From Oceanispirochaeta sp. (GTDB taxonomy: Bacteria > Spirochaetota > Spirochaetia > DSM-2461), in the NCBI GenBank assembly GCA_963666275.2, contig CAXXOA010000002.1, positions 960,001 through 1,024,000 on the forward strand: a DNA stretch of 64,000 nt. The letters are read 5' to 3'. Both the position numbers and the translations under genes were made by a program. The first letter of the stretch is position 1; every line of letters starts with the position of its first letter. The notes under the pieces were generated by a model. The model was not told the origin of the DNA. It saw only the letters and a program-made list of their open reading frames with translations, and made no database searches. Below are positions 29,786 to 64,000 of the stretch, piece by piece.

Positions 29786-29852
29786 ATTATTAATCTCCTC
29801 TAATTTACGTCTTCTCTTGTCTTTTCGCCCCCGCTAAAGTGTGCTCTCTTAA

Positions 29853-31070: not shown

Positions 31071-32066
31071 ATGAAATTTTTAAAATCCACATTTTTCGTA
31101 TCACTATTGGTCCTGGTTTTTACAGGATGCGGAAGGGACCTGGGGTTTTCCCCGTCAGGGACATCCCTCAGCCTATCCCTGAGCTTTCCCGAGTCCGGGG
31201 CTTCAGGAAGTTCCCGGCTGATCCATTCCGAATCGGACCTTCTCACAGTCTCATTGACTTATCCTGACGGGAATGTGATAGAGGCGGAATTTGAGAGATC
31301 CGACTCTGAATCCACTCTGGAAGTTCTCGTAGAAGAGCTGGAACCCGCCGACGGGGTGGAGCTCTATGTTTCTCTGGGTCTGGCCGAGGGGAACCTGATT
31401 CTATCCGATGCTTCTTCCACCATTGATATCGTCCAGGGGGAGAGCATCCCCGTTGATCTGATACTGGAACCTGTGGTTTATGATATTGAAGTAACCTTTA
31501 AAGACAGAAATGGTTCTGCCCTGACGGATTATACACTCCTCTATGATAAGGATATGACAGGTTCTACTTATAAAAATCAGGTTACAACAGACAGCAGCGG
31601 GAAGCTTCCCATGTCCATATCCACCGACAATCTCTATACCTATACATTCTATGAAATGAGTATCTCCCAGGAAGAAGCTACCTACTATATGGCCAGGAAC
31701 GGTCTCCAGGTGCTTCAGTCCGGTCCGGATTATGAAATTGTCGCCCGGCCTGAATTATTTCTGGACATTGATGTTGTGTCTGATGTGGGGCAGCCTCTTT
31801 CCGGTGTCAGAGTAGAGCTGCAGTATACAGTGGACGGGCAGACTTATCAGTCCAAAGATCTGGATACGACCGATGGGAACGGACATATGTTTTTTCATTC
31901 CTACGATGATTCCGCACTGACAGCTTTCTGGGAAAATGTAAGCGCCTACACCTCCCAGAATCTTATATTTAATCTAGTCGATGCCAGTCAGGATATTTAC
32001 AATTTTGATTTCAGTTACGGCAATAATACGCTGGATGATCAGTACGCCATCGTTCCGGCGCAGTAG
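31071..32066 (+). CDS. Lipoprotein paralog 1 (shared N-terminal domain plus Ig/prealbumin-like modules)
   Basis: Lipobox LVFTG-C; RDLGFSP...SRLIHSESD...SLTYPDG...VELYVSLGL shared with the next two genes. Confidence 0.85.
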   Translation: MKFLKSTFFVSLLVLVFTGCGRDLGFSPSGTSLSLSLSFPESGASGSSRLIHSESDLLTVSLTYPDGNVIEAEFERSDSESTLEVLVEELEPADGVELYVSLGLAEGNLILSDASSTIDIVQGESIPVDLILEPVVYDIEVTFKDRNGSALTDYTLLYDKDMTGSTYKNQVTTDSSGKLPMSISTDNLYTYTFYEMSISQEEATYYMARNGLQVLQSGPDYEIVARPELFLDIDVVSDVGQPLSGVRVELQYTVDGQTYQSKDLDTTDGNGHMFFHSYDDSALTAFWENVSAYTSQNLIFNLVDASQDIYNFDFSYGNNTLDDQYAIVPAQ

Positions 32067-32355
32067 AAGGATAAGGAATCTCTATTGCCTTACTGTATAT
32101 AAGTATAAAACAGGGGTAGAAAGGATTGTTTCTCCTAGTGTCCCTGGATTGAAGTTTTCGCATTGTGAAGAGGGGGCTCTCTTCAATTCCAAAGATTAGT
32201 TTTCCATTCATTCAGGACTGTTTTCATGACATACTGATCTTCTGAAGAGATTCCTATTTCAGGAATAAGCTAAAAACTCAAAGAAACACTTGTTCATTAG
32301 TTTTCTATACATTACTATTAGACTTTGCAAAAATAAATGAACAGTGAGAAATTTA

Positions 32356-33321
32356 ATGAAGTTACTGAAATACACAATAGGCCTCTTTGCCCTGACAGTC
32401 TGTCTTATAAGCTGCTCCCGGGATCTGGGTTTTACACCTGACGGAAACTCCCTGGAGCTTTCCCTGACTTTTCCCGGATCCGGGACAGACAGAGAAAGCC
32501 GTCTGATCCATAGCGAATCGGATCAGCTGACCATTTCATTGACCTATCCCGACGGCAGTGTGATTGAACAGCAGTTTGACCGGAACAACTCAGATACAAC
32601 TCTGGACGTGCTAGTGGAAGATCTGGAACCAGCCGACGGCGTTGAGCTGTATGTTTCCCTGGGATTAAAAGAGTTTGATCTGGTTCTCTCTGAAGCCAGG
32701 GATTCCATTGATATAGAGGAAGGCAAAACTGTTCTGGAAGATCTGACTCTTCAGGCAGTGGAGTATGAAATAAGCGGTACTTTGAAAGATGAGTCGGGCT
32801 ATCCAATAACAGATTTAAGTTCTGTTTCCATTAATGGCACAGACTTTCAGTTGGATAAAAATGGAAACTACAAATTTACCCTTTCTACAGAGATGGCTGA
32901 TCATAGCTATGTGATTAATTATATTTATGGGGGAGAAATAAATTTGAATTTTGTTAGAACCGGTTTGGATGTTCTGAAAAACTGGAATAATTTCGAAATC
33001 CAGATTCAGAATGAAATGTATCTGGACTTTTATGTGTATGATTATAATACCGGTTTACCTGTCTCCGGGGCCACAGTGACATTAGAGTACTACTACTCTC
33101 CTGATTTCGTTACCGTCCCAATTAATATCGTATCAGACAGTACAGGTCATATATTCTTTCACTCAATAAATCACCCTGAATTGGACTTCAACAATCAATT
33201 TGAATTCTATACGATGACTATTTCCTATCCGCTTCTTCCAGATTTTGTTGATTATTTCTATGATATTGATAGTTCCTGGTACAGAACTGATGATATTCAA
33301 CTGGATGAACCATTGGTATAA
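32356..33321 (+). CDS. Lipoprotein paralog 2
   Basis: Lipobox CLIS-C; same N-terminal domain, divergent C-terminus. Start is ATG 32356 or GTG 32344. Confidence 0.85.
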   Translation: MKLLKYTIGLFALTVCLISCSRDLGFTPDGNSLELSLTFPGSGTDRESRLIHSESDQLTISLTYPDGSVIEQQFDRNNSDTTLDVLVEDLEPADGVELYVSLGLKEFDLVLSEARDSIDIEEGKTVLEDLTLQAVEYEISGTLKDESGYPITDLSSVSINGTDFQLDKNGNYKFTLSTEMADHSYVINYIYGGEINLNFVRTGLDVLKNWNNFEIQIQNEMYLDFYVYDYNTGLPVSGATVTLEYYYSPDFVTVPINIVSDSTGHIFFHSINHPELDFNNQFEFYTMTISYPLLPDFVDYFYDIDSSWYRTDDIQLDEPLV

Positions 33322-33447
33322 TTCAGGATCTCCTACCAGAATTGTCATGTTTCAGATATGAAGTCGTGATATTGGCGTTATATGATGTATATTATTGTAT
33401 ATTATTGAGTATAATGTATATTAATAGAATCAATAGGACGGCTGTTC

Positions 33448-35310
33448 ATGAAACTGATAAAAATAACAATTTTGATTATTGCAATCGGGGCTGCATTCAC
33501 AGGATGTAAACGAGACCTGGGTTTTACACCTGACGGAAACTACCTGGAGCTTTCCATCCGCTTTCCCCAAAGCGGCACATCCGAATCTTCCCGGTTGATT
33601 CACTCCCAGTCGGATGAGCTCTATATATCCCTGACCTATCCGGACGGCGATGTGGAAGAGGCTACCTTCACCAGGGACAGCTCTGATTCCACCTTATCGG
33701 TACTGGTGGAGGACCTGAGGGTTTCCAATAATGTGGAACTCTATATATCCCTGGGATTGAGTGAGTATGAGATTCCCCTTTCGGAAGTTACCACTACCAT
33801 CAATATCAAAGCCGGAGCGAATACACCTTCACTGCTGACTCTGCTGCCTATTGATTACACGGTGACAGGGACTCTGACAAACAGTTCCAATGCAATCCTG
33901 GGTAACCATTCCATCACATTGAATGATTCTACAAATATCACAACAGACAGCAGCGGGCATTTTTCTCTGACTGTCTCGTCTGAAGATCTTGAGGATTATG
34001 TTAAGTTCAAGATTGTTGATACTGAAACCTATGAACTGGCCAGAACAAATCTCTATCTGATCCAGAACAGAAATAATCTGACCTTGAAAGCCTCCCCGGA
34101 GATCTACCTGGACTTCTTTGTCCGGTCTGAACAATATGCGTTACCGGGAGCCCAGTATTATATCCGGGAAGGCGGAGAAAGCCTTATCCACTCCGGGACA
34201 GCTGATAGTCTTGGGCGTGTTTTCTATCAGGATAGTGATTATACCTCAGCCATTTCTCATCAGATTCAGATTAGTTATAATGATTTTTTTGTTAGTGAAT
34301 ATATATGGACTCCCGGAGCGCCTGGGGCTTTTGTTAATGATGTTGTGATGGATCCTTACATTATTTATTCAGGGTATGACAGTAATGCCGGTTCATATAA
34401 CCTCTACAGGATTAATAGTGCAGACTCTCTTGATGAAGATGTTATTAACATTGGGAACTTTGGTATAGGTACTTATGGCGTAAGAACAGCTGTTGATTAT
34501 CTGTTGGGGAAAATCTATCTTTGGACAAGTACCGGTTCTATCCAATATATAAGTGCTCTGGATGGGTGGAGCACATCTATTACTTCCTCTAATATTACAG
34601 CGAGTCTTCCACAAAATTATAGTTCTGTTCAGCAGATATTGCTTTTGGATAATGGGAACCTGGCTCTAGCTACTTCTTATGGAGTTGTTTTCTATAATAC
34701 ATCTACAAATTCAGTCACTTCCACGATCGATAACGGAGCGGCCAGTTATGGTCTGGTTATCAATGGCATCTATCAGGATGAAAACGGTGATATTTATGCC
34801 TTGGGATCTGATCGATTATCTGCCTCTCCCGGAATCCAGCGAATATATTCTGTTAATACAGGAAGTAAAACTCTGAAGGCGGATCTCTCATCCTATAATG
34901 CTTTTGCAGCCTATCCTCTCTCTTCAGGTTATATCGATGAATCTATGTATTCGTATATGTTAGGCCTTTATGAATGGGATTCCAAAATCGTCTCAATACT
35001 GTCTCAGGATAATCCCTATTCCAATACTAATGGGGAAGTTGTTTTTTTTAATCCTTCCGGCAGTACCTGGTCAACCAGTGGTTCGCCCCTGAAGGAAGAA
35101 AGCAGTGGTGATCCCTTCCTTTACTTGAGACCTATTGGTGTGTTACCTAACAATAAATTTTATTTTATTGAGAAAACCAATGGTTCTGACAGGAAGATTT
35201 TTTCATTGAATGATTCGGATGATGGTACTCCCACGTTGTTTCAGTATTCGAATCCTTCGGGAACAGCTGTAGATAGTGTTTATTATTACTACTCCGAACC
35301 CAGTTCATGA
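33448..35310 (+). CDS. Lipoprotein paralog 3 with a long Ser/Tyr/Asn-rich C-terminal domain (possibly beta-propeller)
   Basis: Lipobox AFTG-C; same N-terminal domain; 620 aa; stop overlaps the next ATG (ATGA). Confidence 0.85.
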   Translation: MKLIKITILIIAIGAAFTGCKRDLGFTPDGNYLELSIRFPQSGTSESSRLIHSQSDELYISLTYPDGDVEEATFTRDSSDSTLSVLVEDLRVSNNVELYISLGLSEYEIPLSEVTTTINIKAGANTPSLLTLLPIDYTVTGTLTNSSNAILGNHSITLNDSTNITTDSSGHFSLTVSSEDLEDYVKFKIVDTETYELARTNLYLIQNRNNLTLKASPEIYLDFFVRSEQYALPGAQYYIREGGESLIHSGTADSLGRVFYQDSDYTSAISHQIQISYNDFFVSEYIWTPGAPGAFVNDVVMDPYIIYSGYDSNAGSYNLYRINSADSLDEDVINIGNFGIGTYGVRTAVDYLLGKIYLWTSTGSIQYISALDGWSTSITSSNITASLPQNYSSVQQILLLDNGNLALATSYGVVFYNTSTNSVTSTIDNGAASYGLVINGIYQDENGDIYALGSDRLSASPGIQRIYSVNTGSKTLKADLSSYNAFAAYPLSSGYIDESMYSYMLGLYEWDSKIVSILSQDNPYSNTNGEVVFFNPSGSTWSTSGSPLKEESSGDPFLYLRPIGVLPNNKFYFIEKTNGSDRKIFSLNDSDDGTPTLFQYSNPSGTAVDSVYYYYSEPSS

Positions 35311-36194
35311 AAATAGCCAGTCTCCATTTTGGAAACGGAGGAGGCCATCTTTTCGGAGGGCTTGCCATCTGGCAGGCTTTCCGGAGATGTATCCCAGATA
35401 ATCTCTCTTTTTACTTACTGACAAACTCGGAGTTTCCTATTCCAGTTGAGGATCCCACTCTGGATATTCTGCGATTGCATCTGGAGCCCGGTAAGTTCTT
35501 TGCCCGGGACCGGGATACCATGCTCTATCAGTATCTGGAACATCTGGATCCGGATGTTATCATTGTGGATCATATCTGGTTACCGGTTATGCCTATACTG
35601 GAGTCTTTTAAAGGAAAAAAAATCATATATTTCAGACAGATACAACCTCAATGGCTGCAGACTCCGGAACTTCCGGATGGCTCCGTTAAAGCATTCAACC
35701 CGGAATCCTATGATCTCGTTTTCAATATAGAGCCGGGATTTGATCTGAACCATGCTGTGAAGGTTCCTCCGCTAATAGGAGTTTCATCAGAGGATGTAAA
35801 ATCCCCCGAAGTCATCCGCCGGGTTTTGAACGTGCCGGAAGGAAAGAAGTTAGCCCTCGCTGCTCACAACGGGCACCCCGGTGAGCTGGAAAAAATTCTG
35901 AAAGAAACTGATATTAACAGGGATGAATACCACCTGGTTTCTCTCAGTAATTTGAATGATGAAGCTGATCAGTTATTTCCTCTCTCCCATTATCTCTCCG
36001 GTGTGGATCTTGCCATCGGTGGCTGCGGCTATAATTTTTTCTATGAAACCCGGTTTTACGATTTAACGGCCATTTATCTGCCTCAATTTAGGGACATGGA
36101 AGATCAGCATTGGCGACTGGAAACAAACCGCCATTACTCCGGACCCTTTAACGGGGCTGAAATCATGGTGCAGAAAATCCTATCCTTGCTATAA
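35307..36194 (+). CDS. GT-B fold glycosyltransferase-like protein A (GT28/GT1-like motifs)
   Basis: N-terminal GNGGGH; DPDVIIVD; C-terminal DLAIGGCGYNFFYE...LP...EDQ-x-x-R. Confidence 0.7.
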   Translation: MKIASLHFGNGGGHLFGGLAIWQAFRRCIPDNLSFYLLTNSEFPIPVEDPTLDILRLHLEPGKFFARDRDTMLYQYLEHLDPDVIIVDHIWLPVMPILESFKGKKIIYFRQIQPQWLQTPELPDGSVKAFNPESYDLVFNIEPGFDLNHAVKVPPLIGVSSEDVKSPEVIRRVLNVPEGKKLALAAHNGHPGELEKILKETDINRDEYHLVSLSNLNDEADQLFPLSHYLSGVDLAIGGCGYNFFYETRFYDLTAIYLPQFRDMEDQHWRLETNRHYSGPFNGAEIMVQKILSLL

Positions 36195-36221
36195 ATTGTT
36201 TTAATTACAGGAGTATCCATT

Positions 36222-37109
36222 CTGAAAGTTGTATCCCTTGGCCTGGGAACAGGTTCTGGCCACTTTTTTGTGTCTCTCACACTCTGGCAGTCTCTGAAAG
36301 AGATCTACAGGGAGGACCTCAGTTTTACACTCCTTCACTGCACGGGAATTGAATCTCCCCTGGATGATGAAACTTTGGAAGCTTTTCCTGTCAATCTTGA
36401 ACCTGAGTCAATGTTCACATCTCCCAGAAAGACCATGCTGTATCAGTATATCAAACATCTCGATCCAGACATTCTAATCGTCGATACCATATGGTTTCCT
36501 GTTTTCCCATTTCTGGATGAAATCAAAGCCAGAAAAATATTCCTTTCTGCCTATATGCCGCCTGAATGGTTTCTTCCCCATCGATGGGATCTGGAAGGGC
36601 TGTATGCCTTTGACCCAGATCAGTTTGATTATGTTTTTGCTATAGAACCCGGATTCCAGTTTCCCGGCAGTATCGAAACGCCTCCTGTTATCAATGTCCG
36701 GGAGTCTCTGCTTCAGTCTCCAGACATTATCCACCGTGTATTGGATGTTCCCGAAGGAAAAAAACTAGCACTGGTTTCTCACAACGGGGAAGAAGGGGAG
36801 ATTGAGGGCATTCTGAAGAACGCGAATATTGATCCCGAAGAGTATTGTCTCAGGTCCTTATCTTCCTTTGATGATAAATCGCAGGAATTATTTCCTCTGG
36901 CGCATTATATGAGCGGAGTTGATCTGGCAATAGGCGGATGCGGATATGGTTTTTTTTATGAAACCCGGTTTCATGAAATCCCTTCAATTTATATTCCACA
37001 GCCACGAATCGGAAATGAGCAGCATTGGAGACTTGAAAATAACCGCAATTATTCCGGACCATATGATGGTGCTGACAAGATTTCCAGGATGATACAGGAG
37101 CTTTTCTAG
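36222..37109 (+). CDS. GT-B fold glycosyltransferase-like protein B (paralog of A; probable CTG start)
   Basis: In-frame LKVVSLGLGTGSGHF upstream of the ORF-track start aligns with MKIASLHFGNGGGHL; AGGAG SD at 36209-36213. Confidence 0.72.
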   Translation: MKVVSLGLGTGSGHFFVSLTLWQSLKEIYREDLSFTLLHCTGIESPLDDETLEAFPVNLEPESMFTSPRKTMLYQYIKHLDPDILIVDTIWFPVFPFLDEIKARKIFLSAYMPPEWFLPHRWDLEGLYAFDPDQFDYVFAIEPGFQFPGSIETPPVINVRESLLQSPDIIHRVLDVPEGKKLALVSHNGEEGEIEGILKNANIDPEEYCLRSLSSFDDKSQELFPLAHYMSGVDLAIGGCGYGFFYETRFHEIPSIYIPQPRIGNEQHWRLENNRNYSGPYDGADKISRMIQELF

Positions 37110-38733: not shown

Positions 38734-39378
38734 TTAAAACAGATAACCCAGGCCCAGTTCAAAGCGGTGAAACCGTATGTCGGCCCTGGTGCCGTCTGTT
38801 CGTTCATATTCGGGGGATGTATAAAATGTTGTATACCTCAGATCCAGGATCCAGTGACCTGCGTCTTCTCTGTCTATGTCCAGACCCAAACCGGCAATAA
38901 AACAGGCATGCAGTTTCCTGTCCGGTTCTTTATCGGCAATAAGAATCTTTTCATCTTCACTTTTAAATGATCCCTCTCCGGAAAGGTATATCAGACCTGT
39001 TCCTCCCTGAAAGAAGAGTCTGACAGGACGTGTATTGAAATAGCTCCTGAAAATAAGAGGAACTTCCACAGAACTCTGGCGAAAGATATACTCTTCCCCT
39101 TCCACATCCAGACCGCAGCTGTTGACGGCGTAGGTCAAACCCGATTCCAGCGCCCAGGATTCGTTGGTAGTGAACTGGAGCAGGAGAGAGCCTGTTCCCG
39201 AAGGAATGGCGAAGCGTTTTGTATCCGCCTCCGCTCCATACCAGTCCCAGTAGCCCTTACCTGTTCCTATAGCGCTGTGAGCGGCTAGGCGGGCTCCCCA
39301 GTGCAGTTCCCCCGCATTGAGAAACCCCGCAGAACAGATCCCCATTAAAATGATCAGGAAGAAACGGTCTCTTCTCAT
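38734..39378 (-). CDS. Outer-membrane beta-barrel protein (porin-family-like)
   Basis: Signal peptide; alternating beta strands; SVEVPL; C-terminal RFELGLGYLF. Confidence 0.75.
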   Translation of the reverse strand: MRRDRFFLIILMGICSAGFLNAGELHWGARLAAHSAIGTGKGYWDWYGAEADTKRFAIPSGTGSLLLQFTTNESWALESGLTYAVNSCGLDVEGEEYIFRQSSVEVPLIFRSYFNTRPVRLFFQGGTGLIYLSGEGSFKSEDEKILIADKEPDRKLHACFIAGLGLDIDREDAGHWILDLRYTTFYTSPEYERTDGTRADIRFHRFELGLGYLF

Positions 39379-40046
39379 GGCTTATTCCCCCGGGGAGGAT
39401 GACTTAATACGCCCAGTCCCATATCGATTCTGTTTATCCTTATATTACCGCTTCCTCCCTGATCCCAGGCGTAGCCGGGAGAGGTGAAGGGATGGGTAAA
39501 GCGAAGGGTCAGGACAAGGTCTTTTCGCTCTGTCAGAGGGACTGTATAATCGGCTCCGGCCTGCAGGCTGAAGAGTATCGTCTTTTCCGCCCTTACATAT
39601 TCATCCGATACGACCCTGCTGTCCAGGGTAATTTCCCTCCGGGTTGTTACGGGCAGAAGCGTCAAAGAGGGGCCCGCTCCCAGAGTCAGTCGGGATCTTT
39701 CAGACAGAGGGGGGGCCATCAGCAGGATAGGGAGCTCCAGCGACTGCTGGGTATAGAGAATCTTCTGATCCTCCACCCTCTGACCTGCCCGGGCAAAGAT
39801 GTACTGAAAAGACATGTTCAGGAGGCTCCGGCGGGAGAGGGGCAGTTTCGCCGTATAGGCCATTCCTCCTCCGGTTCCGGGATAAAGGGACCCTGACTCG
39901 GAAGGGTCTGTAGGCTCCCATAAGCCTTTACCGCTGCCCATTCCCAGAGAGAACAGGCCGGTAAATCCGGTTGTCAGATCCGCCGGATAGAGCCAGGGAG
40001 CAAGGACAAGGAGAATTGAGAGAAGGAGCCTTCTTTTTCCGGTCAT
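39375..40046 (-). CDS. Outer-membrane beta-barrel protein, paralog of 38734-39378
   Basis: Shared G-x-GKG-x-W, Q-x-S-x-E-x-P, LR-x-T-x-x-x-TSP-x-Y and IR-x-x-R motifs; ATGA overlap with the downstream gene. Confidence 0.72.
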   Translation of the reverse strand: MTGKRRLLLSILLVLAPWLYPADLTTGFTGLFSLGMGSGKGLWEPTDPSESGSLYPGTGGGMAYTAKLPLSRRSLLNMSFQYIFARAGQRVEDQKILYTQQSLELPILLMAPPLSERSRLTLGAGPSLTLLPVTTRREITLDSRVVSDEYVRAEKTILFSLQAGADYTVPLTERKDLVLTLRFTHPFTSPGYAWDQGGSGNIRINRIDMGLGVLSHPPRGNKP

Positions 40047-40090
40047 ATAGTATTTCTACCATATTCCGGAAAAAACAACAGCCGGATATT

Positions 40091-42238
40091 TTAGAATTTT
40101 ATTCCCACCACATAGCGGTAGTAGGCCTTGAAGTCCTCACTGAACAGGTTGAATGACTTTCCTGTATACAGGGATGACTGAGGTGCATGGGGATAGGTGA
40201 AATCCATAGTGACCCCCCAGAAGAGTCCTATTCCGTCCAATCCCACAAGAGCCCTGGCCGAGGGAACCGCCGTGTAATCTTTCAGCTCTGTCACATCAAG
40301 GTAACTTTGCTTCATACCGCCGTCCAGGTCCACGAAGAAGGGGCCGATATCCAGGCGGCTACCAATATGGAATCCCCAGACCATATCATCCGGATTTTCC
40401 GTGTAGTTTCCCGAGGTATTACCGAAATAGTAGAGGGTATAGAAGTAGTTGGTTCCCGACTGAAAGGCCGAATAGATCCTTTTGTCCTCCTGGTATTCAA
40501 ACCAGAAACCCAGATCCACTATGCCGTTTCTTGATAAGTTGATTAACCCCAGGGGAAGCCCGTAGATCTCCCGGGATATATTGAGAACCCCCACCTGGAG
40601 TCCCCGCATGGTTCCGGCAATGTTCAGAACCGATACCTGGGTTCCTTCTATGTAGGAACTGTAGTTATAGATCCCCGCCGCCTGGAACCCTTTGAGTTCC
40701 CCCGCCTGGTTGAATATGCCTGATGCCTGTATTCCCGTGGACGGGCGCCCGACAATATTGAAAATACCCGAGGCCTGAATTCCCGTAAAAGACTCTCTGG
40801 TGATATTGAAGACACTTCCGATCTGAATTCCGTTCATGTTCCGGGAGGTGATATTGAAAACATTACCATACTGGATTCCCTCCATATTCCCCTGAACGAT
40901 ATTGAAAAGGTTGCCGTACTGAAAGCCTCTGAAGTTGTCTCTGGTCAGGTTCCAACCATAACTCACCTGGATCCCCTCACTGGGATGGAGGGTGGTGTTC
41001 CAGCCCCAGGTGGCCTGGATTCCCGAAAGGGTGGGGGCTCTTGATCCGAGAAGGCCCAGCTGGAAGTTCACCAGGTCGTTTTCTTCAATTTCAGGATAGT
41101 CCATGCCGGGCAGGATGGAAAAGACAAAGCTCTTCTGACCCTCCGAAACTTCCCCGACTTCTCCCCGGAAACGGGTGAACTCAAAACCCCGGGCGGATTC
41201 AAAATCTTCCAGAGTCAGATAGAGCTGCGCATTCCGGGACAGGCTGACTTCTGCGGTTTTCACATCCTCTCCATCATTATAGAGGCTCTCGGAGCTGCTG
41301 AGTCTGATTGAGTAGGCTCCCGAGGGAAGAGCCATTTTGAGGGTATCCCCCTCAGGTTTGGTGAATTCCGCTATGAGTCTGTCCGTGTCATCCCGGATGG
41401 AGAAGCGGCCCCCCAGTTCGCCCGAAAGCTGCAGGGCTGAAGTGGGGACAGTCAGGTCTGTAAGGACCAGATCTCCGGTTCCTGTCAGCTGTATCTCATA
41501 GGCCGGATGCTGAGGCCCGCCGATGGTGGATTCTGTCCGGGAGAGGGTTTCCTCATAGGTGTGCTGATAGACTTCGTTCAGTGTGACTCTGCCGTCTCTG
41601 GTGTTGTCGGCAGCGCCTCTCAGTCCTGTGATCAGATAGTGGGTGAAAAAGGATCCTCCCAGAGCATCCGATTCCTGGGAGAGCTCTGTTTCCGAACTGG
41701 ATGTCAGAAAAGCATGCCCTTCCATGGAGGAGGAGTCATCCATCAGGAAGGGAGAACGGCGCTGCCCTCCTTTGGATCGTGTGAAGGCTCCGGATGAACA
41801 GGAATCCAGCACCGCAATAACCACATCGGCTCCGGAGCTGTCCAGCTGGGAGCGGATATCCTTGTAGGATATCATCCCGTCGGCCAGGAGGATTCCCGTT
41901 TCATTGGAGTGTCCTGAGTAGTAGAACATGACCTCCGACCGCCTTACCAGGCTGTCAACTTCCTTTATCTGATAGGTCAGATCCCGCAGCTCTCTGCGGA
42001 TCCCTTCTGAGGTTGGATCGAGGAGCAGACGGCTGTCCTCGTAACTGATTCCTCCGATCTGACGCATGGTTCTGGCCATGGCGCTGGCATCATCATCGGC
42101 ATAGAGAAGAGTCTGCCTGGCATCTCCTCCGTTATTGGCTCCGATAAAGAGTCCGAACCGGCGAATCTCCAGGGCATCCGCGCTCAGAAGAGTACTGCCC
42201 AGGGCTATAAAAATCAGGATAAGCGCTGTTTTTTTCAC
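40091..42238 (-). CDS. Secreted caspase-family (peptidase C14) protein with LA_2272-type repeats and a C-terminal beta-barrel-like domain
   Basis: Signal peptide; RFGLFIGAN; L-x-YADDDA; catalytic YYSGH and LDSCSSG; about 11 G-x-Q-x-x-x-x-x-N-type repeats; ends YYRYVVGIKF. Confidence 0.88.
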   Translation of the reverse strand: MKKTALILIFIALGSTLLSADALEIRRFGLFIGANNGGDARQTLLYADDDASAMARTMRQIGGISYEDSRLLLDPTSEGIRRELRDLTYQIKEVDSLVRRSEVMFYYSGHSNETGILLADGMISYKDIRSQLDSSGADVVIAVLDSCSSGAFTRSKGGQRRSPFLMDDSSSMEGHAFLTSSSETELSQESDALGGSFFTHYLITGLRGAADNTRDGRVTLNEVYQHTYEETLSRTESTIGGPQHPAYEIQLTGTGDLVLTDLTVPTSALQLSGELGGRFSIRDDTDRLIAEFTKPEGDTLKMALPSGAYSIRLSSSESLYNDGEDVKTAEVSLSRNAQLYLTLEDFESARGFEFTRFRGEVGEVSEGQKSFVFSILPGMDYPEIEENDLVNFQLGLLGSRAPTLSGIQATWGWNTTLHPSEGIQVSYGWNLTRDNFRGFQYGNLFNIVQGNMEGIQYGNVFNITSRNMNGIQIGSVFNITRESFTGIQASGIFNIVGRPSTGIQASGIFNQAGELKGFQAAGIYNYSSYIEGTQVSVLNIAGTMRGLQVGVLNISREIYGLPLGLINLSRNGIVDLGFWFEYQEDKRIYSAFQSGTNYFYTLYYFGNTSGNYTENPDDMVWGFHIGSRLDIGPFFVDLDGGMKQSYLDVTELKDYTAVPSARALVGLDGIGLFWGVTMDFTYPHAPQSSLYTGKSFNLFSEDFKAYYRYVVGIKF

Positions 42239-43048
42239 TTAATGGTCCTCTTTCAGGATCGGGACGGCATACTGATGGATTGTACCAATTGCCGATGTAT
42301 CCAGTTTTTCCTTCTTCAGGAGACCGGGGATATCCAGGAGAATGTTCTGATCCCTGGCCTCTCCGGCTATCAGGTCAATGATCGGAGCCACAGGAAAAGC
42401 CTTGTCTGAAGTGATCAGATAGAAGGTCTCATAGGCAGGGGCATCATCCAGTTCATACGAGAAGGGAAGCAGCTGCTGCCCTCCGGTTTTCAGGGGCACC
42501 GCGGTTTCGGATTCTTCGGGGAGATGGCGGGTTACAACGCCTCGGCCGTCTACCGAAATGATCATTCCGTATACGGGAGCTGTTACCTGATAGGCCAGCT
42601 GGATAAGATCCGATTCTTCGGCGGAATCATAGAGTTCCAGTACTTCCGATTTTCCCTGAATCTCCCTGTAGACCTTCAGATCCGGTTCTCCCAGGCCTTT
42701 GATCCTTGTTATCTCATTGTCAGGGGTCCTGTCATTGACCGAGAAGAGGAAGGGGATAAACAGACCGAAAAGGACCATGGCCGCCGCGGGAATCAGATAG
42801 GGCAGGCGGGACTTCCTCGAGGGGAAAGAGGTCTCGTTCCCTCTATCAGTCTCTTCCTTCCCTTCCATTTTCGCCTTTATAGCGGCCGCCATATCTTCCG
42901 GTTTGTAGGCGGCAAGGATCTCTCTGTTGGACCGGGCTATTTCATCCATCTCCCGGGAGAGTTCTTCCCTGTCCAGGCCCTCTTCCCAGGACGGAGGGAG
43001 TTCTCCCAGAAAGTATTTTTCCGCTTTTACGGTAGGATCTTTTTTCAT
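42239..43048 (-). CDS. Putative transmembrane anti-sigma factor (ActD-like/DUF4384-like periplasmic domain)
   Basis: Short cytoplasmic N-terminus (EKYFLGELP), one TM helix, TRIKG, then D-x-IQL-x-Y...SVDGRG-x-VT-x-H-x-P...SYELDDAP; overlaps the sigma gene stop. Confidence 0.75.
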   Translation of the reverse strand: MKKDPTVKAEKYFLGELPPSWEEGLDREELSREMDEIARSNREILAAYKPEDMAAAIKAKMEGKEETDRGNETSFPSRKSRLPYLIPAAAMVLFGLFIPFLFSVNDRTPDNEITRIKGLGEPDLKVYREIQGKSEVLELYDSAEESDLIQLAYQVTAPVYGMIISVDGRGVVTRHLPEESETAVPLKTGGQQLLPFSYELDDAPAYETFYLITSDKAFPVAPIIDLIAGEARDQNILLDIPGLLKKEKLDTSAIGTIHQYAVPILKEDH

Positions 43049-43524
43049 AATTCTCTCCCTTCCAGGCTTAACCCTGCTTCCCGAAGTTTTCTGAGCCGCC
43101 GTCTGACCCCGGATACGGACATTCCCGCCATTTCCGCTGTCTCTTCCAGTGTCAGACCATCCATATAGTGCAGCACCGCGATGGTCCTTGTTGAAGGTTT
43201 CTGTTCCATAAAAAGCTGGTCCAGAAAAATCCTGTTCACCGCCTGATCCTCCACCCGGTCGGAGCTGACGATCCTTTCCAGTATTTCATTGTCCGCAGAG
43301 CTCCGGTTCTCTTTCCGCATTACATTCAGACAATGGTTGGTGGCAATCGTATAGAGCAGACTGGAGGGGTATGTGTCTTTCAGGCTTTTCTTCTTGTTCA
43401 GTACTTTGACAAATACATCCTGCATCGCGTCCAGTGCCATTTCCTCATCTTTCAGAAGCTGCCGACAGCGTCTGAGAACCATCGGTCCGTATTTGGTATA
43501 TAAACTTTCAATATCAACAGCCAG
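43045..43524 (-). CDS. ECF sigma factor (sigma70 group 4), probable CTG start
   Basis: Region 2 LYTKYGPMVLRRC...DAMQDVF...LYTIATNHCLN; region 4 GLTLEETAEMAGMSVSGVRRRL. Extended 14 codons beyond the ORF-track start. Confidence 0.92.
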   Translation of the reverse strand: MAVDIESLYTKYGPMVLRRCRQLLKDEEMALDAMQDVFVKVLNKKKSLKDTYPSSLLYTIATNHCLNVMRKENRSSADNEILERIVSSDRVEDQAVNRIFLDQLFMEQKPSTRTIAVLHYMDGLTLEETAEMAGMSVSGVRRRLRKLREAGLSLEGREL

Positions 43525-43535
43525 ACCCTGCCCCC

Positions 43536-44147
43536 TTAGTACTCTTTGAAATAGCGATCGTAATACCTGCGTCTGTGCCGGTCTTCTCCTCCCAGCCTTA
43601 CACCTGCGGAAAGGGAAGCCTGCCAGCGGGAGACCACCAGAGGAGAGATTCCCGCGGCAGGGATAGCACTGTTGTCTATCCGGTATACCAGACGGGATCC
43701 CAGAAAAAATCCATCCTGAAGCAGAAGATTCACTCCGGCTCCTGCAGCAGGGACCAGGGAAAGATGAAGCTCCCGGTCTGAAGTCATACCAGTTTTTCCG
43801 AAGTTTCCATATGACCCTTCCAGATAGGGATCCAGTAAACAGCTATTCCCAAATAGATGATACCTTATAAAGATTTGACCTTGCCAGTTAAAATACCACT
43901 GGTTTTCTTCAGTTTCCTCAAAATCGATCAAACCGCTCATACCGAATCCCAGATACTCCTGCTTCATTTCAATATCCATACCCCGGAGACTCATCTCATC
44001 CTGGCGGATATCTTTCAAATGGTCTTTTTTCTCATCCCATTCCCAGGTGAAAACAGCGGAAATCCGGGTTTCCTCCAGAGCTGTTAAACCCATGGCAGGG
44101 CCGGTCAGTAGAATTATAAGAACGGTTAAGTTTCTGACGGATCTCAC
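43536..44147 (-). CDS. Exported beta-barrel-like protein, first gene of the ECF operon
   Basis: GTG 44147 behind GGAGG; signal peptide; amphipathic strands DPYLEG, GAGVNL, SLSAGVRL. Confidence 0.65.
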   Translation of the reverse strand: MRSVRNLTVLIILLTGPAMGLTALEETRISAVFTWEWDEKKDHLKDIRQDEMSLRGMDIEMKQEYLGFGMSGLIDFEETEENQWYFNWQGQIFIRYHLFGNSCLLDPYLEGSYGNFGKTGMTSDRELHLSLVPAAGAGVNLLLQDGFFLGSRLVYRIDNSAIPAAGISPLVVSRWQASLSAGVRLGGEDRHRRRYYDRYFKEY

Positions 44148-44219
44148 TTTTTCAGCCCTCCGGTCTGTTCTACTAGATAAAACAACCAGAGCGGTGATTT
44201 CTGTCACTCTAAAAAAATA

Positions 44220-44249
44220 AAAAAGCCGGTTTCCAGTCAACCGGCTTCT
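44220..44249 (-). terminator. Intrinsic terminator after the MCP gene
   Basis: AAGCCGGTT-loop-AACCGGCTT followed by a T-run on the minus strand. Confidence 0.75.
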
Positions 44250-44273
44250 CTCAGGATCCAATACGTCGGGAGT

Positions 44274-62340: not shown

Positions 62341-62409
62341 GGTGTTTATTTTAACCAATAAGAAATATCAGATCTACAGCCCTTCCCGGAAGAGGATAAA
62401 TCTTTTCTC

Positions 62410-62659
62410 CCCCGGTCACAGAGCGGAGCCGAAATTGCTTGTATTGATTAATTCTTCCCGGATTTCCCCGATTCCTGAGCGGAGCCGTAGGAGAGGGATT
62501 AAACTAATACAATACAGATTCCCCGGTCACTGAGCGGAGCCGAATATGTTGTTTTTGCCTAATCCCTTCCGGATTTCCCCGGTTCCTGAGCGGAGCCTAA
62601 GGAGAGGGATTAAATTAATACTATACAGATTCCCCGGTCACTGAGCGGAGCCGAAGTGG
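62410..62659. repeat. Array of five REP-like units (CCCCGGTY-x-CTGAGCGGAGCC) with 55/56-bp spacing
   Basis: Units start at 62410, 62466, 62521, 62577 and 62632; A and B types alternate, giving a 111-bp higher-order period. Confidence 0.9.
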
Positions 62660-64000
62660 AGGGGATTCGCTTTCTTCCCCAGCAGCGCCATTCCCAGATA
62701 GATGACTCCCAGAGCTATTCCCGAATAGAGCATATAGAGCGGATTATGTCCCTCGGCGATCTGATAGAAAAGGGTCGCCGTCGCCCAGGCCAGGATTGTC
62801 AGGTACACCATCTGTACCGCAGTGTAAAGGGGACCCATCTCCTGATAGGCCGCGCTCATGGCCGCCAGACAGGGAAAGTAGAGAAGGACAAAAAGCAGAT
62901 AGGCAAAACCGGCTGCAGGAGAAAAGTATTTCTGCATCCTCATGAGGGTATTATCCTCCAGTTCCAGTTCCCCCGCTATAGTCTGTGAATCCTGCGTCAC
63001 CGAGGATATTCCGATCAGATCTGCTGTGCGGAATAGATCCAGGAATCCAAATGCAATGGATTGGAACGCTCCCAGTACTGTTCCCAGGGGATCAAGGGGT
63101 TCCTGTTTCTCCACGCTTTGTATTTCCGCATGAAAGTCCATGGACGCATAGAGGGAGTTCACAGTACTGACAATGGCTTCCTTGGCGAAGAGACCTGTAA
63201 AAAGGGCTACCGATGCGGGCCAGTTTTCTTCACTGACACCCATGGGTTCAAACACAGGCTGCATCTTTTTACCCACATGGGCCAGGACCGAGTTCCTGGT
63301 ATCCTGGTTTCCAAAGGTAAGGCCGTCCTCGCCGATACCCATGGCGTTCAGAAATCCCAGGATCGTAACGGCAATGGTCATGATAAGACCGGCTTTTTTT
63401 ACAAATGAGGTCAGACGGATTCCTGCCGCCTTCATAATGGATCCCGGACGGGGGGTATGATAGAGGGGAAGGTCCATCACAAAGTTGGAGTGGGTTCCTT
63501 TAAAAATGGTATTCTTCAGAAGAAGTCCTGTCAGGATGGCCATAACAATGCCCACAAGGTAGATGAGGAATACCATCACTCCCGACCATCTGTTGAACAG
63601 GGCTGCACTGAAAAGGGCATAAACAGGGAGTCTGGCTCCGCAGGACATAAAAGGGGTCATAAAGATCGTCATGTATCTGTCCCGCTTGGATGTCATGGTC
63701 CTGGCGGACATTATGGCGGGTACTGTACAGCCGAAGCCCACCATCAGAGGGATAAAGGCATTCCCCGGCAGTCCTATGGATTTCATGACCCTGTCGGTGA
63801 TCACAGCCATCCGGGACATATATCCCACGCCTTCCAAAATCGCCAGGGCCAGGAACATGAAGAACACCACCGGTATGAATGTGGATACCGTCTGCAGCCC
63901 CGCTCCGATCCCTCCGGCCAGAAGGGTAATCAGCCAGTCGGAACTACCCATATGATTCAGTAGAGCTCCCAGGGCATCCACAAAGATCAGACCTGTGATC
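62638..64000 (-). CDS. feoB: Ferrous iron transporter FeoB, C-terminal part (runs off the right edge)
   Basis: GYMSRMA, GFGCTVPAIM, PFMSCGARLPVY, FAKEAIV, LLYFPCLAA. Confidence 0.95.
   Translation of the reverse strand, partial: ITGLIFVDALGALLNHMGSSDWLITLLAGGIGAGLQTVSTFIPVVFFMFLALAILEGVGYMSRMAVITDRVMKSIGLPGNAFIPLMVGFGCTVPAIMSARTMTSKRDRYMTIFMTPFMSCGARLPVYALFSAALFNRWSGVMVFLIYLVGIVMAILTGLLLKNTIFKGTHSNFVMDLPLYHTPRPGSIMKAAGIRLTSFVKKAGLIMTIAVTILGFLNAMGIGEDGLTFGNQDTRNSVLAHVGKKMQPVFEPMGVSEENWPASVALFTGLFAKEAIVSTVNSLYASMDFHAEIQSVEKQEPLDPLGTVLGAFQSIAFGFLDLFRTADLIGISSVTQDSQTIAGELELEDNTLMRMQKYFSPAAGFAYLLFVLLYFPCLAAMSAAYQEMGPLYTAVQMVYLTILAWATATLFYQIAEGHNPLYMLYSGIALGVIYLGMALLGKKANPLHFGSAQ

Follow-up and report, generated by a model that had tools for sequence, protein, structure and literature searches.

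The cell-surface signalling switch FecI/FecR/FecA relies on a sigma factor of the extracytoplasmic function (ECF) type and induces a TonB-dependent receptor, and in the autoregulated ECF operons of sigmaE/RseA/DegS/RseP (E. coli) and SigW/RsiW (B. subtilis) a single-pass anti-sigma factor undergoes site-1 and site-2 proteolysis. Caspase-clan enzymes enter such circuits in two described systems. For DdvS/DdvA of Myxococcus xanthus, an ECF sigma with a single-pass anti-sigma, a site-1 cut in the periplasm by self-cleavage of a CHAT protease, followed by RseP, has been proposed; in DdvA the TPR-CHAT protease is fused to the anti-sigma, which also contains a zinc-binding domain and has a defence island under its control (PMC11506125). 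In type III-E CASP, an ECF sigma is set free when its anti-sigma is cleaved by a caspase-clan protease; the system is cytoplasmic, is triggered by RNA via Cas7-11 and employs a CHAT protease whose cut sites differ (PMC10028731; bioRxiv 2022.08.17.504292), and some Csx30 proteins end in DUF4384 (bioRxiv 2022.08.17.504292). Other caspase/ECF neighbourhoods, of the EACC2 type (PMC8195603), and ECF54 factors with CHAT neighbours (PMC8999054) have also been reported. Bacterial caspase relatives are widespread, and few have a known natural substrate or role. Here we analysed a 64,000-nucleotide stretch of an Oceanispirochaeta sp. genome (assembly GCA_963666275.2, contig CAXXOA010000002.1, positions 960,001 to 1,024,000; hereafter the window), in which an ECF sigma factor, a predicted anti-sigma and an exported C14 caspase are encoded one behind the other (hereafter the trio).

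Gene order and recurrence of the trio

An initial annotation of the window, made from the sequence alone, had read six tightly packed minus-strand genes as one operon: a barrel-like protein (orf1), the sigma, the anti-sigma, the caspase and two further barrels (A and B). Inspection of the open reading frames (ORFs) showed all six in that order (Table 1), with the 4-nt overlap between sigma and anti-sigma and the 0-nt gap between anti-sigma and caspase as described; the caspase carries the expected dyad (YYSGH, H110; DSC, C147) behind an N-terminal hydrophobic stretch fit for export. The genes are thus all real, but the unit contracts to four of them, orf1, sigma, anti-sigma and caspase. The proposed hidden Markov model searches (Pfam) matched Sigma70_r2/r4 and Peptidase_C14 (2.6e-14), while the anticipated DUF4384 match to the anti-sigma came out at 3.1e-5, below the cut-off.

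The neighbourhood survey likewise called for revealed a trio order conserved across phyla. Among the best 80 genome-contig loci (several locus sets overlap, and identical sequences were collapsed before counting), sigma, anti-sigma and caspase stand together in this order in 75, a co-occurrence that exceeds chance. Three of the five exceptions lie at contig borders (L085, L094, L101), one has no sigma match (L086) and one no adjoining caspase (L083). Record titles of trio loci span Spirochaetota, Myxococcota, Acidobacteriota, Aminicenantes and others, and the gene order is also kept in very distant myxobacterial paralogues; at locus L028, that of the nearest named relative, the anti-sigma and caspase are 64% and 81% identical to the window proteins, and the host of the window is probably a free-living spirochaete. 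The anti-sigma is present in 27 of 61 relatives (own genome included), in 29 of 201 sampled Spirochaetota genomes and, for the phylum to which a Corallococcus belongs, in 63 of 101 sampled genomes. Unlike an alignment-based search of genome contigs, in which at least 582 of 594 pattern matches were confirmed as anti-sigma, a single-sequence search of the contigs gave no match. By profile, the family comprises 2,267 clusters (50% identity) at E<=1e-30 and 6,165 at E<=0.001; it is thus large, and culturable myxobacteria carry the trio.

Some loci of the survey have features of their own. Five titled Eubacteriales or Clostridia (L042, L047, L060, L069, L097) encode caspases with barrel-like tails and cluster with Aminicenantes in the tree; their titles may be wrong. 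In the distant myxobacterial paralogues L177:1-918 and L179:1-888, a conserved exported protein is encoded upstream of sigma. Genome G128 has 16 matches to the caspase domain, and L017:2300-2677 is a broken caspase gene.

The sigma factor consists of regions 2 and 4 only, is the single sigma of this type in its genome and has SigW as its only sequence match among solved structures. Because the homologous start codon in other species (CTG in loci L001-L012) agrees with it and a strong Shine-Dalgarno site lies ahead of it, we place the start at CTG 43524 (43522-43524), from which 159 aa are counted. The initial annotation had found the gene, but its ORF, opened at ATG 43482, is too short and lacks the start of region 2. 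The CTG codon may damp basal sigma synthesis. Other lineages start the sigma with ATG, GTG or TTG, and automatic annotation would shorten a CTG-started one.

Directly behind sigma, the 269-aa anti-sigma has the layout of a single-pass anti-sigma factor, with a predicted helical cytoplasmic N-terminus, one transmembrane helix (~aa 84-102), a disordered linker (aa 103-117) and an extracytoplasmic immunoglobulin (Ig)-like sandwich (predicted local distance difference test, pLDDT, of the model 84.9). A weak DUF4384 match below the cut-off recurs in 24 of 77 family members, none of which matches a FecR domain. The sandwich resembles generic Ig-like folds only (best Z 8.9), and a profile search of the anti-sigma against the PDB gave no meaningful match. 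There is no Cys in the N-terminal domain of the window protein; among distant relatives, zf-HC2 occurs in 11-23% of cluster members. Note that some homologues carry the database label 'ActD-like', which is a name only. The genome also encodes an RseP-type M50 protease.

The caspase and its three basic-Gly sites

The initial annotation was right about the catalytic dyad but had overlooked the beta-helix and the barrel in which the caspase ends. In the model (mean pLDDT 86.5, predicted template modelling score 0.51), the signal peptide is followed by the protease domain and an Ig-like domain, from which a disordered linker leads to the beta-helix and then to a barrel of 8 strands. A single-sequence PDB search gave no meaningful match for the caspase. 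By structure, its best solved relatives are metacaspases, with Arabidopsis metacaspase 4 as the best match of the protease domain (Z 20.8, root-mean-square deviation (rmsd) 2.9, 209 aligned), and the fold also matches glycosylphosphatidylinositol (GPI) transamidase and asparaginyl ligases (Z 17.8-17.9). The beta-helix has a structural match at Z 18.6 (rmsd 2.2, 202 aligned), and the barrel, which ends in Phe, matches that of OprF (Z 14.7, rmsd 2.5, 115 aligned). OmpA-class barrels keep their N-terminus in the periplasm, and we therefore predict from the model that the protease domain faces the periplasm, tethered to the outer membrane. This is the only C14 gene in its genome.

The residues of the active site are invariant: H110, D145, C147 and also D50 are found in 95 of 95 caspases. 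D50 and D145 align to the metacaspase motifs 'INDA' and 'DSC', positions at which Asp marks the Arg/Lys-cutting metacaspases. Since both are invariant, the S1 pocket fits the Arg/Lys type. The EF-hand-like acidic loop is also conserved (D211 in 93/93, D215 in 88/93, E222 in 92/93 homologues), which makes calcium a candidate cofactor that the loop could possibly bind.

What the enzyme might cut is suggested by three basic-Gly sites. In the anti-sigma, unbiased alignments show K117 in 98/98, G118 in 97/98 and R115 in 86/98 sequences. Nine residues past its catalytic Cys, the caspase repeats this motif, with K156 and G157 kept in 95/95 and R154 in 87/95, and within an otherwise variable linker it has R358-G359 in 89/90. 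All three sites (K117, K156, R358) are predicted to lie in segments with pLDDT <50, aa 103-117 in the case of the anti-sigma. Such conservation is not a general property of these dipeptides: of the seven K/R-G dipeptides of the caspase, K156 (95/95), R358 (89/90) and R207 (92/93; in the folded core) are conserved, and the other four are kept in only 2/90 to 14/64; of the three in the anti-sigma, the one at K117 is kept in 97/98.

The tail behind R358-G359 varies, 45 of 64 full-length homologues having beta-helix repeats and 19 lacking them; the site is present in all 19 of the latter, with tails down to 55 residues. The Treponemataceae caspases L070:5070-6329 and L102:8770-10008 keep the R-G site ahead of a 55-residue tail, have no barrel and are followed by a conserved lipoprotein-like gene. 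We found no natural split of the caspase after R358-G359; these two are cases of a short tail and then an unrelated gene. Genome G000 encodes, in addition, an exported stand-alone protein of 355 aa (L293:2144-3211; G000:C1, minus strand), 27% identical to the beta-helix/barrel part of the caspase, with neither a protease domain nor the promoter motif.

We then compared the sites of anti-sigma and caspase across 177 systems (14 loci without a caspase or a parsable motif were left out). Note that the motif parser required Lys-Gly, so that conservation of Lys-Gly is no result of this set. Among them, 24 anti-sigmas and 18 caspases have lost the Arg that stands two residues ahead of the Lys. The loss is joint in 12 of the 177 systems, which fall into five clades and include paralogues within myxobacteria. 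The association (phi 0.52) exceeds that of independent evolution simulated on a FastTree tree (p 0.0007 and 0.002, 1,500 runs each).

Promoter, operon borders and candidate regulon

The initial annotation had guessed the promoter to lie at 44150-44215, a region that does contain a bipartite motif (44207-44181), just past a terminator-like hairpin predicted to insulate the operon from the upstream chemoreceptor gene. Of 94 loci, 61 have GTRACA-N17-TGTT no more than 130 nt away from the start of sigma, whereas 200 shuffles gave a maximum of 1. Among held-out myxobacterial loci, we observed it in 22 of the 33 whose sigma is close and in 0 of the 58 whose sigma is distant. We predict that it is the promoter of this ECF sigma subfamily, which, as is usual for ECF factors, would thus have a bipartite sequence motif ahead of its own operon. 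In G365, where the caspase lies on a different contig from the sigma pair, it has its own strong copy of the sigma promoter, and the caspase is therefore tied to the sigma independently of position.

The first gene, orf1, has no Pfam or NCBIfam match and was placed among small outer membrane protein barrels by Atlas features. Of 27 relative loci, 12 carry it upstream in the same orientation, and weak opposite-strand homologues are present in six other loci; because the promoter motif precedes it in 11 of these 12, it is an operon member at the level of the lineage. At L010, a short remnant ORF occupies the orf1 position upstream of sigma. Six loci (L035, L041, L044, L085, L087, L100) have a second motif, on the opposite strand, ahead of a small exported barrel-like gene near sigma; small barrels thus recur as regulon members.

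The two downstream barrels are paralogues, as had been stated (22% identical; OMP_b-brl_2 in Pfam at 0.047 for A and 1.9e-8 for B), and overlap by 4 nt, with A starting 44 nt past the caspase stop. They were matched in only 1 of the 80 wide loci. Among the 11 genomes of the genus set, they follow the caspase in G000, G004, G005 and G009, possibly also in G007 across a contig break, are missing behind it in G001, G002 and G003, and occur without the trio in G008 and G010, in G008 directly after an hpt gene. No promoter motif of their own was found. We therefore rejected them as part of the module: they are genus-only neighbours that also live apart from it, and probably just neighbours in the window as well. 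A terminator between caspase and barrel A was not supported (z -1.8), and transcription may read through from the operon into them. Of the idea that the barrels serve as sensors, partners or output of the circuit, what stands is that the upstream one is a lineage-level regulon member; for the two downstream ones it finds no support.

Table 1. Positions of the features within the window
Feature	Position	Strand	Basis or remark
Terminator-like intrinsic hairpin of upstream chemoreceptor gene	44219..44251	-	z -3.9
Predicted ECF sigma promoter, GTGACA-N17-TGTT	44181..44207	-	motif counts across loci
orf1, exported protein, predicted to be a small barrel of the OmpA type; heads the operon in this lineage only	43536..44147	-	
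ECF sigma, 159 aa, predicted CTG start	43045..43524	-	Pfam, NCBIfam
Predicted anti-sigma, single transmembrane helix, DUF4384-like Ig sandwich	42239..43048	-	
Anti-sigma R115-x-K117-G118, predicted site-1 cut	42695..42706	-	conservation, low pLDDT
C14 caspase-fold protease, 715 aa	40091..42238	-	Pfam, NCBIfam, structure model
Caspase catalytic His110 to Cys147, including pocket Asp145	41798..41911	-	Asp50 at 42089-42091
Caspase R154-x-K156-G157, predicted self-processing site	41768..41779	-	conservation; disordered in model
Caspase EF-hand-like acidic loop D211-E222, possible calcium site	41573..41608	-	
Caspase R358-G359, predicted site at which the protease unit is released from its anchor	41162..41167	-	kept in variable linker
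Caspase beta-helix, LA_2272-type repeats	40541..41143	-	NCBIfam, model, structure match
Caspase 8-stranded OmpA/OprF-like C-terminal barrel ending in Phe, predicted outer-membrane anchor	40094..40534	-	
Barrel paralogue A, genus-level neighbour, probably outside module	39375..40046	-	
Barrel paralogue B, genus-level neighbour, probably outside module	38734..39378	-	

Genome-wide, the strict motif shows no excess at the 17-nt spacer (30 sites versus 12-34 at other spacers), and the regulon is therefore small. Four candidate targets were checked for the motif in relatives. For a TonB-dependent receptor, 8 of the 9 orthologues that could be assessed have it at 37-56 nt upstream (a further two lack upstream DNA); this gene heads a distal operon of receptor, lipoprotein-like gene, ExbB, ExbD, ExbD and TonB. 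The receptor is present in 10 of 37 relatives, 9 of them with the anti-sigma, and is missing from 9 other trio genomes; at L053, L076, L103 and L106, genes of the receptor/ExbBD/TonB operon adjoin the trio. Motif and linkage together make it likely that the sigma controls the receptor. A resistance-nodulation-division (RND) efflux pair (L125:1608-5988) has the motif upstream in 9 of 13 relatives, and its membership is uncertain. A secreted 306-aa protein has it in 2 of 5. We rejected pspA, since 2 of 30 loci have the motif and it coincides there with a sigma-54-like box. At the psp locus (L124:416-1766), a pspA-pspB-like-pspC operon and the gene for a PspF-like activator diverge from each other; the box overlaps a full ECF motif in G000 and G003, and a dual promoter is possible.

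Elsewhere in the window, three tandem paralogous lipoprotein-like genes with a common N-terminal domain (31071-35310; AT-richer, GC ~0.41) stand ahead of a pair of glycosyltransferase-like paralogues (35307-37109). At 62408-62663, a 34-nt repeat is present in five copies spaced by 55-56 nt (a 111-nt double unit), with a lone similar copy at 29847; it looks more like repetitive extragenic palindromes than like CRISPR.

Proposed circuit, alternatives and known systems

We consider it rather probable that the caspase is the dedicated site-1 protease of the anti-sigma, acting through self-processing, release and an anti-sigma cut, with an RseP step then releasing sigma. An envelope signal, sensed by the variable barrel/beta-helix tail or through calcium, would activate the protease, which would mature by cutting itself after K156 and gain the periplasm by cutting itself after R358. 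Once released, it would cleave the anti-sigma behind K117, at a distance of 15 residues from the membrane, and so detach the DUF4384 domain; RseP would then cut within the membrane and free the sigma, which would transcribe its own operon, in a positive feedback, and the distal receptor/lipoprotein/ExbB/ExbD/ExbD/TonB operon. That a dedicated caspase makes the site-1 cut was already the guess of the initial annotation; the predicted cut now gains specific support, at the level of sequence, from the shared basic-Gly site, the acidic S1 pocket, the joint change of the motifs and the relocated caspase with its sigma promoter.

Several observations weigh against this proposal. Gene order, residues and motif placement are seen in the sequence, and folds and topology come from models, but each cleavage, the contact between sigma and anti-sigma and the signal are inferred; the strand number of the barrel is the one feature from which the periplasmic orientation is predicted. 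The covariation does not reach significance in a sign test on independent pairs (p 0.25; of 8 pairs, 3.2 concordant, 0.1 discordant and 4.7 unchanged), and 18 of the 30 Arg-losing systems lose the Arg on one side only. Six anti-sigmas without an adjoining caspase keep the Lys-Gly site, which may have a structural role. Note that all five genomes with an orphan anti-sigma that were searched encode a related caspase elsewhere, and they therefore provide no negative control for the site. The caspase itself stands behind the sigma promoter, which fits a pure output role as well. Finally, the RND motif is also there in G008 and G012, two genomes in which the searches turned up neither sigma nor caspase, so that not every copy of the motif implies this sigma; these copies may be relics or the site of another regulator.

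It is such an output role that we take most seriously among the alternatives, while holding it to be unlikely: the caspase would remodel the envelope or process cargo as a product of the regulon, with a Prc/DegS-type host protease, or self-cleavage, cutting the anti-sigma, and the shared Lys-Gly sites would be read by the host protease or be structural. The promoter ahead of the caspase gene even when relocated, the orphan anti-sigmas and the sign test all agree with it, and host site-1 proteases and self-cleaving anti-sigmas are described routes (PMC11506125; PMC8999054). It leaves aside, however, that the pocket chemistry of the caspase matches the sites, that the site is kept across phyla with differing host proteases, that the Arg is lost jointly in five clades, myxobacterial paralogues included, and that the caspase directly follows the anti-sigma in nearly all loci. 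In another alternative, the R-x-K-G loop of the anti-sigma would dock in the active site as a pseudo-substrate or inhibitor and not be cut, with sigma released by a conformational relay as in FecA/FecR or with the anti-sigma restraining the protease; a docking loop would yield the same conservation and covariation, and a TonB receptor system is what FecIRA-type signalling puts out. We nevertheless judge docking decidedly improbable, given that the dyad is intact in 95/95 caspases, that an invariant small Gly after the Lys and the disorder around it fit a scissile bond, and that the caspase itself contains this site two times, at places typical of processing.

The strict Gly after each of the three cuts, together with the match of the fold to GPI transamidase and asparaginyl ligases, could also speak for a transpeptidase that cuts Lys/Arg-Gly and joins the fragment to another acceptor such as an envelope component, as other clan CD enzymes do (GPI transamidase, plant ligases). 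To this we give hardly any credence: the scores of metacaspases and caspases are at least equal to these (Z 20.8), no conserved acceptor gene is seen in the loci, and the anatomy is accounted for by simple hydrolysis. An anti-phage or cell-death switch in the manner of DdvS/DdvA or type III-E CASP comes to mind in that these two closest described caspase/anti-sigma systems are defensive, but it strikes us as very unlikely. PADLOC, run on the six proteins, returned only generic helix-turn-helix matches for sigma and no Cas7-11/Csx29 match (the search for Cas genes was confined to these six); none of the 20 largest of the 29 repeat families of the window is a CRISPR-like array; and the predicted targets are uptake and envelope genes. 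The circuit thus shows no link to known defence systems or to CRISPR, of which the initial annotation had supposed it to be independent.

If the caspase does act as site-1 protease, this would be a new signalling route, whose protease is kept at the outer membrane until it cuts itself free. The module can be tested directly, since it offers a candidate substrate with bonds specified at three positions as well as a promoter and an operon as target. As an ECF switch gated by a protease, with a short basic motif, it would also be a usable part for synthetic biology. A bolder form of the proposal, which we advance tentatively and at somewhat less than even confidence, sees the caspase as an outer-membrane receptor-protease with a swappable sensing tail, the freed enzyme being a diffusible periplasmic messenger that switches on dedicated TonB uptake. 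With the same reserve, the module would operate in thousands of lineages, its paralogues insulated from each other by small changes of the cut motif, and it may be the source of the DUF4384 anti-sigma domain of type III-E CRISPR.

Descriptions of the trio were sought in the full-text literature and none was found, though subscription journals and the rest of the ECF supplement could mention it; the main text of PMC7826278 has no mention of 'caspase', and the one DUF4384 passage in the searched part of its supplement concerns ECF25. The name 'ActD' (M. xanthus act operon) is shared with some anti-sigma homologues as a database label only. The trio is like DdvS/DdvA in its ECF sigma, single-pass anti-sigma and proposed caspase-clan site-1 cut in the periplasm; unlike DdvA, it has a separate C14 protease with a predicted outer-membrane anchor, a DUF4384-like anti-sigma and a predicted TonB output, and its 269-aa anti-sigma has neither a TPR-CHAT fusion nor the CHCC Cys in the N-terminal domain of the window protein. 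With CASP it would have in common the cutting of an anti-sigma by a caspase-clan protease that frees an ECF sigma, and it differs in its predicted envelope location and its Arg/Lys-type C14 enzyme; the DUF4384 likeness of the anti-sigma to Csx30 is one by description, the window match being weak and below the cut-off. As in FecIRA, an ECF switch likely induces a TonB-dependent receptor and the signal likely enters at the outer membrane, but the anti-sigma has no FecR domain, the predicted outer-membrane partner in the operon is a caspase fused to a barrel, and the receptor is often encoded far away. It shares the fold, the His-Cys dyad and the acidic pocket with metacaspases and orthocaspases such as AtMC4 and MaOC1, enzymes of a type that needs self-processing for activity (PMC5756287), and departs from them in being exported, fused to an Ig domain, beta-helix and barrel, and encoded next to its candidate substrate. 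Compared with sigmaE and SigW, finally, the predicted site-1 protease is a co-transcribed cysteine protease freed from the outer membrane and not a general inner-membrane protease. Overall, the trio belongs to none of DdvA, CASP or FecIRA and is apparently a real, widespread and undescribed variant of regulated anti-sigma proteolysis, which resembles RseA/DegS/RseP in its logic, DdvS/DdvA and CASP in its enzyme clan and FecIRA in its output.

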